From a virus, in the IMG/VR virus record IMGVR_UViG_3300045988_175441, positions 1 through 64,000 of that record: 64,000 bases of DNA; one strand, 5' to 3'. Shown piece after piece: positions 42,050-44,284 of this stretch (position 1 is the first letter of the stretch; each line of letters starts with the position of its first letter). The translations under genes and the position numbers were made by a program. The notes below the pieces were generated by a model, which was given only the letters and a program-made list of their open reading frames with translations, searched no databases and was not told where the DNA came from.

Positions 42050-44284
42050 TTGGTAACTGTAGGAAAAAAGAAAAAGCACCACAAACCAAAAGGAAAGTCC
42101 AAAGAAATAGACGAAAAGTTTTCTAAAGCAGTTCATGTGAATAGTTCAGGACGACAACAACTAGTGTTCAACTACGATACCAAAGTTGTTTCTTGGAACA
42201 ACAAGGTAAGGGAATACAAGGAAGAACTTGAAAAGGGTTCAGGAACAGAAAGTAGCTTGTTTCGTAATGAGCAATTTAAGAAGCTGTTAGATGACTTTAA
42301 CAATGAGTACAAGGATAGTTTGATTATTCTCCCCCCCTATGATGGAAATTTTAGGGGGCGTGAGAATGAATTGAAAGCAATCAACGATACAATAGCTAAT
42401 ACCCTAGAGCCTACACGAATAATTCTTGGAAATGCAGGTACAGGGAAAACAACTATTGTCCGTGAAGCGACAAGACGGATCAATTCAGGCGAAATGACAA
42501 ACAAGATGGGTTATAATCTTGTAGTTGTGGAGCTATCCTTACTAGCTTTGCTAGATGAAGGGGATAGCAAGTTCACAGCAACACTAGCTGAAATGATACC
42601 TAAAATCCTTGGACTAGAGCAGAAGGCAAGAGAGTTCCTAAATGACGAAAACATAAAATTTGTTCTCTTTATTGATGAAGCACACACTCTTACTAAGGCA
42701 GTCCAGAAGGAAAATGGAGAGAGTAATGGTGCTGACGTTTTGAAACGTCATATCAAGCCAGAAATTGGCTCTTTGATTCTCATTGGCGCTACAACGCTTG
42801 AAGAATATCGCTATTACATTGAAACCAACCAACCTTTCAAGGAGCGCTTCTCAGAGAAAACGATTCTACAGGACTTTTCAAAAGAAGAAGTAGAAGAAAT
42901 CGCAGTCGCTCATTGGGAATACTTGATGAAGCTCAGAGGAATAACTAATTCAACGCTATCCAGAGAGCTGATACGCTTTATTATCCGTGTAAATGCTAGA
43001 GAAGATTTAATGAGTGCTGAACCACGGAAAACCAAGCAATTTCTACAGAGTTTGGACGCTCACTCCTTTAACGTAGGAGAGACACCTGACTACCAAATGG
43101 TCGTAGAAGTCTTTAGGTCGGCTAAGAATATCACAGCAGAGGTTGTTCCTGATATTGAGAGTGCAACCAAAGCGATAGATGAACGTATTAAAGGTCAGTA
43201 TGCTTCTAAGTATCTATTGAAACGTGCGTTAGTATCACGATACGGTAATCTATCCAAGAGTGATAACAGCCCCTTCTTATCGTTACTAGAACTTGGACCA
43301 ACAGGTGTAGGTAAGACAGAAACAGCTAAAGTCCTCAACGAGTATATCTTTGGTGGACTTGGTAAAATCGTTCTTCTGAACTGTTCTAACTATGCCTATA
43401 TCGAAGGTGGGGTTGAAAAGTTCCTAAAAGAAGCAGGGGAACAGGTGGGAGATAGTGAGTTTGCTATCCTTGTCATTGACGAGGTGGAAAAAGCTATCCC
43501 TTCCAAAGATAACAAGGTTATCAGTTCTTTGCGTGATGTGTTCCTAGACCTCACAGGAGAAGGTATCTTAAAGTATGCTCCACGCTTTGGTGGAGTGGAT
43601 AGAAAGACCTCTTTAGCAAAAGCTATCGTTATCTTTACCTCAAATGCAGGTTATGAAATCTTTGAAGGGAATGACAAGTTCTCAGATAACACGATAACTA
43701 AAAATACTCCTGAAAATGAAATCAGACGGATCATGTTCTCTATCGTAAATGAGTTAGAGAGCCATCTACACGAAAAGTACAACTTTGCCAGAGAGTTCTT
43801 TGGACGTTTAGACGCTACACTACCGTTTACGTCTTTGACCGAGGCAGACGCTATCGAGTTGACCGAATTGTTCTTGGATAAGTATATCCAGAACGCAAAA
43901 GAGCAAGAGAACATAGAAATCAAAATTGATGATAAAATAGAGTATAAGAGTACACTTGTTCGTGGCTTAGAAGATGGAGAGGTAAGGGAGTTTTATCCAC
44001 TTGCTGTTACTCTATCCTCTTACATAGCGAATATGCGTGATAGCTCTAAGGGTGGAGCAAGGCAAGTTCAAAAAGTCTTTAACAACTACCTAAATGTGTT
44101 GATTGGGGATATTAAGTTGAAACGTAAAGGTTTTAAAGAACCTAAGACAATCAAGATTTATCCACGCTTGCTTGAACCAGACACAGGAAATGTTGTTCAG
44201 GATAAAGAAGAACAGAGAATGGTTCGCTATGCTCTAAAGCCTAATAGAATGGAGGATATAGAGATATTCTATGAGGAGATTTAA
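42050..44284 (+). CDS. Clp/Hsp100-like double AAA+ ATPase (744 aa)
   Basis: NBD1: GRENELKAINDTI...LGNAGTGKTTIVRE, FIDEAHTL, IGATTLEEYRYYIE...FKERF. NBD2: IKGQ...GPTGVGKTETAKVL, LVIDEVEKA, FTSNAG. TTG start after AAAGGAGAG. Confidence 0.8.
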   Translation: MVTVGKKKKHHKPKGKSKEIDEKFSKAVHVNSSGRQQLVFNYDTKVVSWNNKVREYKEELEKGSGTESSLFRNEQFKKLLDDFNNEYKDSLIILPPYDGNFRGRENELKAINDTIANTLEPTRIILGNAGTGKTTIVREATRRINSGEMTNKMGYNLVVVELSLLALLDEGDSKFTATLAEMIPKILGLEQKAREFLNDENIKFVLFIDEAHTLTKAVQKENGESNGADVLKRHIKPEIGSLILIGATTLEEYRYYIETNQPFKERFSEKTILQDFSKEEVEEIAVAHWEYLMKLRGITNSTLSRELIRFIIRVNAREDLMSAEPRKTKQFLQSLDAHSFNVGETPDYQMVVEVFRSAKNITAEVVPDIESATKAIDERIKGQYASKYLLKRALVSRYGNLSKSDNSPFLSLLELGPTGVGKTETAKVLNEYIFGGLGKIVLLNCSNYAYIEGGVEKFLKEAGEQVGDSEFAILVIDEVEKAIPSKDNKVISSLRDVFLDLTGEGILKYAPRFGGVDRKTSLAKAIVIFTSNAGYEIFEGNDKFSDNTITKNTPENEIRRIMFSIVNELESHLHEKYNFAREFFGRLDATLPFTSLTEADAIELTELFLDKYIQNAKEQENIEIKIDDKIEYKSTLVRGLEDGEVREFYPLAVTLSSYIANMRDSSKGGARQVQKVFNNYLNVLIGDIKLKRKGFKEPKTIKIYPRLLEPDTGNVVQDKEEQRMVRYALKPNRMEDIEIFYEEI

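Follow-up and report, generated by a model that had tools for sequence, protein, structure and literature searches.

The stretch analysed here, positions 1 to 64,000 of IMG/VR virus record IMGVR_UViG_3300045988_175441 (64,000 nucleotides (nt), hereafter the window), encodes a 744-amino-acid (aa) protein with two AAA+ modules, which we consider, with moderate confidence, to be the dedicated ATPase of a divergent mating apparatus resembling type IV secretion systems (T4SSs), probably supplying the energy that the VirB4 protein of this apparatus cannot. An earlier note on this DNA had suggested a transfer or secretion machine with a non-canonical energising or disassembly ATPase. Of these two roles the energising one is the best reading, because the protein has a fold with two nucleotide-binding domains (NBD1 and NBD2), its gene keeps its place in a conserved operon and the VirB4-like protein encoded two open reading frames (ORFs) upstream lacks Walker A and Walker B motifs; disassembly in the manner of ClpV is not sustained. 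The part that the module would play in transfer is putative, drawn from fold, motifs, synteny and co-occurrence, and the protein is best explained as one of a large lineage of minimal ATPases with two rings, derived from Hsp100 and dedicated to conjugative elements of Gram-positive bacteria. The literature found names this lineage only as 'clpX_pELF, putative chaperone', and in the literature searched it is essentially uncharacterised.

A two-ring Hsp100 fold without tyrosine pore loops

The ATPase gene opens with a TTG codon that has an AGGAG Shine-Dalgarno motif 9 nt upstream, and this start is backed by the N-terminal 'VT[VI]G', which is kept in relatives of 60-90% identity. All motifs that the earlier note had quoted are present in the frame, namely GNAGTGKT (residues 127-134), FIDEAHTL (207-214) and IGATTLEEYR..FKERF (245-267) in NBD1 and GPTGVGKTE (416-424), LVIDEVEKA (474-482) and FTSNAG (529-534) in NBD2. 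Its claim of two complete Clp-type NBDs is likewise confirmed by Pfam (AAA, 125-250; AAA_2, 410-589), by a phmmer search of the PDB, in which Hsp101, ClpC1, ClpB and ClpC match in two stretches (E 1e-26 to 1e-19), and by Foldseek. Specifically, an AlphaFold2 model computed with ten family sequences as input (mean predicted local distance difference test (pLDDT) 81.2, predicted template modelling score (pTM) 0.72) retrieves protomers of ClpC1, ClpC, ClpA and ClpB at E~1e-28, a template modelling (TM) score of ~0.75 and 18-21% identity. The PDB sequence matches and the model superposition therefore give the ATPase a two-ring Hsp100 fold, and it is a protein of the Hsp100/Clp class-I type, with two tandem AAA+ modules and a complete motif set. 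With the class-I proteins ClpA, ClpC and ClpB/Hsp104 it shares Walker A/B, sensor-1, the arginine fingers and the sensor-2 GAR, at only ~19-25% identity.

When 1.84 billion representatives were searched exhaustively by HMMER with the family profile, at least 150 proteins (50% identity clusters) scored 374-930 bits; canonical Clp proteins score 256-323 bits with the same profile, compared with at least 374 for the listed members. Among 81 intein-free members, K133, D209/E210, T248/T249, R266, K422, D477/E478, N532, R586 and R671 are invariant (81/81), and these residues are both Walker A lysines, the Walker B Asp-Glu pairs, sensor-1, the arginine fingers and the sensor-2 arginine. Judged by its sequence, the ATPase is catalytically intact in both rings. 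A neighbour-joining tree of NBD2, which is crude and settles neither the rooting nor the family boundary, shows two subclades.

What sets the family apart emerges from an alignment of seven members with canonical ClpC, ClpB and ClpA. The earlier note had proposed looking for a Clp_N domain, an M-domain and a ClpP-docking loop, and none of the three is present in the family alignment: the Clp_N domain (PF02861) is absent, nothing is inserted between NBD1 and NBD2 where an M-domain would sit (ClpA, too, has no M-domain), and the ClpP-docking [LIV]G[FL] tripeptide after the NBD2 sensor-1 is neither present nor conserved. Precomputed Pfam annotation agrees, in that PF02861, PF17871 and PF10431 are missing from family members near and remote and present in the canonical Clp matches ranking beneath them. 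In addition, the family has an insertion of 11-13 residues preceding the NBD1 Walker B and another insertion in the D2 small domain. The pore loops differ most. The NBD1 pore loop is shorter and has no 'KYR' motif, and the 'GAPPGYVGYEE' pore loop of NBD2 is cleanly deleted (12 residues), so that Walker A and Walker B of NBD2 are spaced 55-58 residues apart among the 149 listed representatives, wherever both motifs are intact, as opposed to 68-69 in canonical ClpB, ClpC and ClpA. None of these 149 representatives has KYRG or GYVG in place, and across the 81 members the NBD1 pore site is leucine, methionine or phenylalanine, never tyrosine, and the NBD2 site is short and variable. The pre-sensor-1 (PS1) hairpin of NBD2, in turn, is 8-11 residues longer than in canonical Clp proteins; it is extended in 53 of the 81 members, with tyrosine or phenylalanine at position 509 in 50, and in the other 28 the hairpin is short and carries no aromatic residue.

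The label 'unfoldase' used in the earlier note is not borne out by a protein whose NBD2 pore loop is deleted, whose NBD1 has no pore tyrosine and which has no N-domain; to our knowledge, every characterised Hsp100 unfoldase uses pore-loop tyrosines. A true unfoldase might still work through non-canonical pore elements, acting on proteins that accompany the DNA (relaxase, terminal protein or primase) or on the tail of the giant membrane protein encoded next to the ATPase. The Hsp100 architecture with both rings catalytically intact, the hydrophobic residue kept at the NBD1 pore site, the extended hairpin with its frequent aromatic residue and the report that relaxases must be unfolded to pass a T4SS (PMC10359608) all suit such a role. 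The deletion of the NBD2 pore-1 loop, the lack of a pore-loop tyrosine in either ring, the members with a short hairpin and the missing substrate-binding N-domain speak against it, and we regard it as distinctly improbable.

The curated NCBIfam models place the ATPase far under every cut-off at about equal scores: 108 bits compared with a cut-off of 885 for ClpV/TssH (TIGR03345), 105 with 1232 for ClpB (TIGR03346), 95 with 1900 for ClpG, 92 with 1900 for ClpK and 91 with 993 for ClpA. The ATPase is not ClpA, ClpB, ClpC or ClpV. This bears directly on the analogy, drawn in the earlier note, with ClpV of type VI secretion systems (T6SSs), according to which the ATPase would disassemble or recycle a polymeric structure. 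ClpV/TssH is indeed an Hsp100-type ATPase that serves a secretion machine and not proteostasis, the general Hsp100 fold is shared, and its model is the best NCBIfam match by a hair; ClpB and ClpA score essentially the same, however, so that the ATPase stands no nearer to ClpV than to them, and it has neither a ClpV-type N-domain nor pore-loop tyrosines. With no sheath, tube or other T6SS genes among the window ORFs scanned, a ClpV-like role appears very remote.

A loose parallel from general knowledge is EccA of the mycobacterial ESX or type VII secretion systems (T7SSs), a cytosolic AAA+ accessory protein that works in an envelope machine of the Gram-positive type alongside an FtsK/SpoIIIE-type motor; conjugation of pRAW needs both T4SS- and T7SS-like genes. 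The sole data for this likeness are a weak match of the EccA model to the ATPase (E 4e-7), and EccA differs in being a single-ring CbbX-type protein with a TPR domain, homologous only in the AAA+ core.

Several proteins at the margins of the family deserve mention. The 'ClpA-like' proteins of jumbo phages (PHROG 4871, RaK2) and the Clp protein of Clostridium botulinum pCLJ were considered as relatives and rejected, as both have canonical KYRG/GYVG loops, NBD2 spacings of 66 and 68, respectively, and other gene contexts. Levilactobacillus brevis pLB925A04, a plasmid typed conjugative, encodes next to a topoisomerase gene an intermediate Clp-like ATPase (L106, 3003-4796) with an NBD2 spacing of 62 and 'GTADKRG', without tyrosine, replacing GYVG, which may represent a stage in the evolutionary loss of the pore loops. 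Long relatives of 850-1480 aa (P0180, P0182, P0190, P0193 and others) carry LAGLIDADG/Hom_end inteins in the P-loops of NBD1, NBD2 or both. P-loop inteins are typically found in mobile-element genes under high constraint, and their presence in many members therefore points to strongly constrained active sites on mobile elements. In Streptococcus salivarius pIKMIN-B502 (L002, 14616-16824) two ORFs take the place of the intact ATPase gene, one of 124 aa with the NBD1 Walker A and the other an annotated 605-aa 'AAA family ATPase'; a frameshift, a pseudogene or a sequencing error accounts for the split.

A conserved operon with a VirB4-like pseudo-ATPase

The second line of evidence is the company that the ATPase gene keeps (Table 1). 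From 36734 to 48440 the genes are packed with successive gaps of 3, -1, -4, -7, 21 and -14 nt, and terminator-like hairpins at 36410-36437 and 49915-49948 flank the cluster. The last of these values is the 14-nt overlap between the genes for the ATPase and the 1389-aa giant protein, whose ATG at 44271 is taken as correct because it keeps a signal peptide that is lost with the downstream start of the gene callers. The earlier note had placed the ATPase between 'T4SS membrane components' and a 'VirB6-like' protein; the tight packing and overlap hold up, and these labels find no backing in a match to any sequence family.

Table 1. Positions of the ATPase gene, its neighbours and other genes of interest in the window
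Feature	Coordinates	Strand	Remarks
FtsK/SpoIIIE protein, 876 aa, N-terminal transmembrane helices, TraC-TraD fusion	21200..23830	+	FtsK_SpoIIIE E 2.6e-44
Homologue of pELF2 tra-operon orf5	23864..24535	+	
Rep3-type plasmid replication initiator	29709..31058	+	
Peptidoglycan hydrolase, 876 aa	33158..35788	+	Phage_lysozyme2, Amidase_5, Glucosaminidase, CHAP
PrsA-like peptidyl-prolyl isomerase homologue	36734..37876	+	one transmembrane helix/lipoprotein-type N-terminus; gene callers start at ~36779
Soluble ORF, 117 aa	37880..38233	+	position conserved at head of core module
293-aa protein with two transmembrane helices (59-103)	38233..39114	+	stop overlaps start of VirB4-like gene
VirB4-like pseudo-ATPase, 642 aa	39111..41039	+	
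Bitopic protein, 331 aa	41033..42028	+	N-terminal transmembrane helix, extracytoplasmic domain, C-terminal coiled coil
ATPase, 744 aa, minimal two-ring Hsp100-like	42050..44284	+	NBD1 ~101-370, NBD2 ~375-700
Giant polytopic membrane protein, 1389 aa	44271..48440	+	predicted to be translationally coupled to ATPase
ORF with two transmembrane helices, 92 aa	48511..48789	+	follows giant gene
LPXTG-anchored surface protein, 264 aa	49086..49880	+	followed by the downstream terminator-like hairpin
FtsK/SpoIIIE-domain protein (second), 509 aa	59152..60681	+	one transmembrane helix
DNA/RNA non-specific endonuclease, homologue of pELF2 tra-operon orf1	61058..61855	+	

This arrangement recurs well beyond the window. 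In 14 of 14 elements (the window, the Enterococcus faecium pELF-type plasmids, S. salivarius pIKMIN-B502, Mammaliicoccus sciuri pNW26-2, an 84-kb Staphylococcus aureus plasmid and nine metagenomic elements), a giant ORF of 1000-2055 aa comes directly after the ATPase gene, although the identity of the ATPases falls to ~25%, and in 7 of the 14 the two genes overlap by 8-20 nt. The giant proteins of these elements are mutually homologous and have one common architecture, which in the 1389-aa protein consists of a signal peptide, an ectodomain, a cluster of transmembrane helices (~413-551), a second ectodomain, a second such cluster (~958-1100) and a basic low-complexity tail of ~280 aa. In the window's subclade the core order is an ORF of ~117 aa, a protein of ~290 aa with two transmembrane helices, a protein of ~620-664 aa, a bitopic coiled-coil protein of ~331-381 aa, which always lies directly upstream of the ATPase, then the ATPase, the giant and a protein of ~92-125 aa with two transmembrane helices. 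ORFs positioned like this last one in four other elements give sub-threshold matches to T4SS_pilin (PF18895; best 26.2 bits, cut-off 26.6), and the 293-aa protein would hold a VirB3-like position. Upstream of the core operon, in the window as in its relatives, lies the gene for a multi-domain peptidoglycan hydrolase. The window's hydrolase agrees with pCF10 PrgK in enzyme class and in size; it was rejected as a PrgK orthologue, since the two have only the CHAP domain in common. The exact ATPase protein was found on human oral metagenome contigs, and relatives lie on contigs of up to 107 kb.

The ATPase gene is thus syntenic with a giant ORF across the 14 elements and is not a stray chaperone gene, the possibility that the earlier note had named as a refutation. 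Plasmid-borne heat-tolerance Clp genes are common, as matches in Klebsiella and Listeria illustrate, and the ATPase could in principle be cargo of this kind, a stress chaperone or disaggregase like plasmid ClpL, ClpK or ClpG, or else a defence or anti-defence ATPase. The synteny and apparent translational coupling in all 14 elements, the uniform GC content, the lack of N-domain, M-domain and pore loops and the very low ClpK and ClpG scores leave little room for such a function, which we consider highly improbable. A defence-system reading was rejected after PADLOC gave the ATPase only generic partial matches to AAA+ proteins; its neighbours had no meaningful defence match, the only one being a coiled-coil match of the 331-aa ORF to DndD. 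PHROGs contain no family for any of the ATPase's neighbours.

The 642-aa protein carries the remaining part of the argument. It has no match in Pfam, NCBIfam or PHROGs, and none in the PDB even by profile search. An AlphaFold2 model has a mean pLDDT of 44.5, with residues ~280-550 at 60-87, and in a Foldseek search its top five matches are VirB4 of Thermoanaerobacter pseudethanolicus (4AG5/4AG6; E 3e-7, probability 1.0, TM score to target 0.53-0.67), followed by DndH-C, HerA and TrwB. The model thus supports a VirB4/HerA/TrwB-type fold for the C-terminal half of the protein. The layout of the motifs runs parallel to that of PrgJ. Where PrgJ has 'GTSGSGKG…FLIVDPESEY' for the P-loop and next strand, the 642-aa family has the invariant 'S-x-S-φ-x-G-Q-x-x-A-N…HIVLNDFDY', and where PrgJ has 'LYFDELQ' at the Walker B site, the family has 'φφφHGxD'. 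The Walker A lysine and the Walker B Asp-Glu are replaced in 12 of 12 orthologues, and an orthologue from the MobL-associated element L101, related at E 1e-27, likewise lacks Walker A and B. These data support a conserved pseudo-ATPase, and with them the description 'degenerate VirB4-like' in the earlier note is upheld by both Foldseek and the motif layout. A catalytically dead VirB4 makes this lineage unusual, given that no other T4SS protein is regarded as ubiquitous (PMC4027160).

The element, its transfer genes and known conjugation systems

The window also encodes a second set of genes related to conjugation. The 876-aa FtsK/SpoIIIE protein is homologous to TraC of the linear plasmid pELF2 over residues 20-393 and to TraD over residues 417-722. 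In pELF2, TraC, a membrane-anchored partial ATPase, and the FtsK-type TraD are separate, interacting and essential proteins; their natural fusion in the window supports their proposed physical coupling. For pELF2, traC, traD and traG have been reported as essential for transfer (Kurushima et al. 2026, PMC13492992). The description of the ATPase gene as 'embedded in the transfer operon' was accordingly overstated, as the homologues of pELF-type TraC and TraD lie at 21200-24535 in the window and in pELF2 the two loci are far apart.

Around these genes the element is poorly annotated. The orf5 homologue is immediately followed in the traCD cluster by a gene for a DUF7679 protein (24535-24933, +; E 4e-28). 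Three tandem paralogous ORFs of 362, 366 and 371 aa (25759-29117, -; 24-43% identity), for which no family is detectable, lie between traCD and the replication gene. The second FtsK/SpoIIIE protein gene adjoins the orf1-like endonuclease gene. ParA and SSB are encoded as well, the ParA-type ATPase on the plus strand at 18780-19622; positions 1-20800 hold a long run of minus-strand ORFs with almost no family matches except an LPXTG/adhesin-like protein, and most of the element is unannotatable.

The E. faecium carriers of the module had been considered pMG1-like, an assignment that was rejected: they are pELF-type and match the pELF2 tra operon gene for gene. NZ_LT598665, for instance, has the nuclease, a 348-nt ORF, traC, traD, orf5, orf6, orf7, traG (rhomboid-like) and orf9 of the published gene list (PMC13492992, Table 1). 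The ATPase gene, as 'clpX_pELF', is core in all 41 pELF plasmids, and pELF plasmids carry the same module of ATPase, giant and pseudo-VirB4 as core genes (PMC12691693). Neither the ATPase nor the pseudo-VirB4 is mentioned in the pELF2 transfer paper (PMC13492992) or its preprint. The same paper reports that pELF plasmids have no nickase (PMC13492992).

Among distant members of the family the ATPase gene lies beside more familiar transfer genes. In L100 the order is MobL relaxase, a 178-aa ORF, the ATPase, a 1367-aa giant, a 121-aa ORF, a 741-aa ORF and a VirD4/TraG-D_C coupling protein, the last with TraG-D_C and T4SS-DNA_transf matches, and in L101 it is topoisomerase, MobL relaxase, a 196-aa ORF, the ATPase, a 297-aa protein with two transmembrane helices, a 674-aa pseudo-VirB4 and a 1168-aa giant. 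In a plasmid collection, the pELF pseudo-VirB4 matches 135 records (107 from Enterococcus) and the pELF ATPase, at E<=1e-60, matches 114 (106 from Enterococcus); ATPase and pseudo-VirB4 are likewise found together on plasmids of Staphylococcus, Macrococcus, Mammaliicoccus, Ligilactobacillus (L. salivarius), Rhodococcus and Streptomyces. The plasmid survey that the earlier note had called for finds the ATPase co-occurring with the pseudo-VirB4 across Gram-positive plasmids. MOB-suite types most module-bearing plasmids as 'non-mobilizable', including the experimentally conjugative pELF-type ones, and standard typing therefore misses this system, which Pfam and NCBIfam do not recognise either.

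Compared with the T4SSs of Gram-positive bacteria (pCF10 Prg/Pcf, pIP501 Tra, pCW3 Tcp and ICEBs1 Con), the system has in common a peptidoglycan hydrolase, small proteins with two transmembrane helices, a VirB4 fold, a large polytopic membrane protein, LPXTG adhesins and a coupling ATPase of the FtsK or VirD4 type. Specifically, the coupling ATPase is found on the window's element, as the TraC-TraD fusion, and on L100, and a cell-wall hydrolase of the VirB1 type is found as the 876-aa protein with four lytic domains, whereas functional Walker A and B motifs of VirB4 are absent from the 12 orthologues and from L101. The system differs further in that an Hsp100-like ATPase is a fixed additional part and that the polytopic protein, at 1000-2055 aa, is not recognisably VirB6 or TrbL. 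To the pELF-type system of traC, traD and traG the window is linked by its fused TraC and TraD and its orf5 and orf1 homologues; the published model of that system, in contrast, is a minimal three-gene machine (PMC13492992).

Proposed mechanism, competing explanations and significance

The available data are compatible with a model in which the ATPase is co-transcribed and translationally coupled with the giant membrane protein and belongs to a module that would span the envelope as a mating channel, made up of the ATPase, the giant, the protein with two transmembrane helices, the pseudo-VirB4, the bitopic coiled-coil protein, the hydrolase, the PrsA-like foldase and the small pilin-like protein. 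The ATPase would form a cytoplasmic hexameric double ring in which both rings hydrolyse ATP, and this ring would dock on the membrane complex from the cytoplasmic side, for which the long basic tail of the giant and the VirB4-like scaffold are candidate sites. As the nucleotide-hydrolysis motifs of VirB4 are lost here, the ring could take over the energy supply and provide the energy for assembly or gating that VirB4 provides in canonical T4SSs. Classical Clp threading of polypeptides is improbable for a protein that lacks the canonical tyrosine pore loops; the ATPase may instead act as a conformational or remodelling motor, or grip through the lengthened, aromatic-bearing PS1 hairpin. DNA would be pumped by separate proteins, either of the FtsK type, such as the TraC-TraD fusion, or of the VirD4 type. 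The hexamer, its docking, its energising role and a need for it in transfer are all predictions of this model.

A number of points weigh against it. With the pore loops lost, the model does not account for the mechanical output of the ATPase, and the link of the module to transfer is predicted from its genes alone. The VirB4 assignment comes from the low-confidence model described above, with sequence profiles blank, and it is structural only, as hhalign of the 642-aa family against the single PrgJ sequence gave no match. The giant ORF matches no Pfam, NCBIfam, PHROG or PDB family, a profile search of the PDB included, the 331-aa and 293-aa proteins match no T4SS family and return only coiled-coil and transmembrane noise in PDB profile searches, and the window's own 92-aa ORF has no T4SS_pilin (PF18895) match. 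No relaxase was found among the window ORFs scanned, many of which are unannotatable in a window that is partial, and a search of the window for an equivalent of the rhomboid-like TraG found none. The family size is a lower bound, and the lower boundary of the family is not fixed. In addition, the pELF2 deletion study covered only the 12-gene tra operon at 71.5-80 kb, called 'minimal' (PMC13492992), and the ATPase (31075-33021) and pseudo-VirB4 (41017-42996) genes of pELF2 lie ~40 kb from that tested operon.

The same facts lend themselves to another explanation, in which the module is a protein-secretion or surface-assembly apparatus carried on conjugative plasmids, and not a conduit for DNA, and the ATPase powers that process. 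Mating-pair stabilisation or aggregation, export of the giant's ectodomains, entry exclusion and establishment are candidate tasks. Transfer of pELF2 is explained by three essential genes in a separate operon (PMC13492992), the module lies at a distance from tra in pELF, none of its membrane components matches a T4SS family, and genes for LPXTG proteins, sortases and SpaA-type pilins recur beside it (in the window at 49086-49880 and 8293-10098 (-), in L008 at 27-33 kb, and in L103 and L106). The VirB4-type fold, the PrgK-type hydrolase and the pilin-like ORFs, however, are a signature of Gram-positive mating channels, and in L100 and L101 the module is interleaved with relaxase and coupling-protein genes. 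Sortase-dependent assembly, as far as we know, needs no cytoplasmic ATPase. We therefore judge a surface or secretion apparatus to be unlikely, albeit the strongest competitor to an energising ATPase of a mating apparatus.

If the ATPase does energise a mating apparatus, a broader idea follows, which we put forward tentatively and with rather less than even confidence: a widespread class of Gram-positive conjugation systems may use VirB4 as a dead scaffold and a pore-loop-less Hsp100 ring as motor, and may constitute the other half of the 'minimal' pELF system and of many 'non-mobilizable' plasmids. The question of the ATPase's role is open to the pELF2 genetic system published in 2026.

These findings bear on how type IV secretion is thought to be powered. 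The ATPase activity of VirB4 is treated as its universal engine, and a conserved pseudo-enzyme VirB4 that always comes with an active Hsp100-like ATPase would, if true, alter views of motor use and evolution in T4SSs. A double-ring Hsp100 protein with perfect catalytic sites and no tyrosine pore loops is, furthermore, a natural experiment on what such rings do without classical threading. The module is core to pELF-type linear plasmids, by which resistance to vancomycin and linezolid spreads in Enterococcus faecium, and its presence on staphylococcal, lactobacillal and actinobacterial plasmids typed as 'non-mobilizable' means that the transfer potential of these plasmids may be systematically underestimated.

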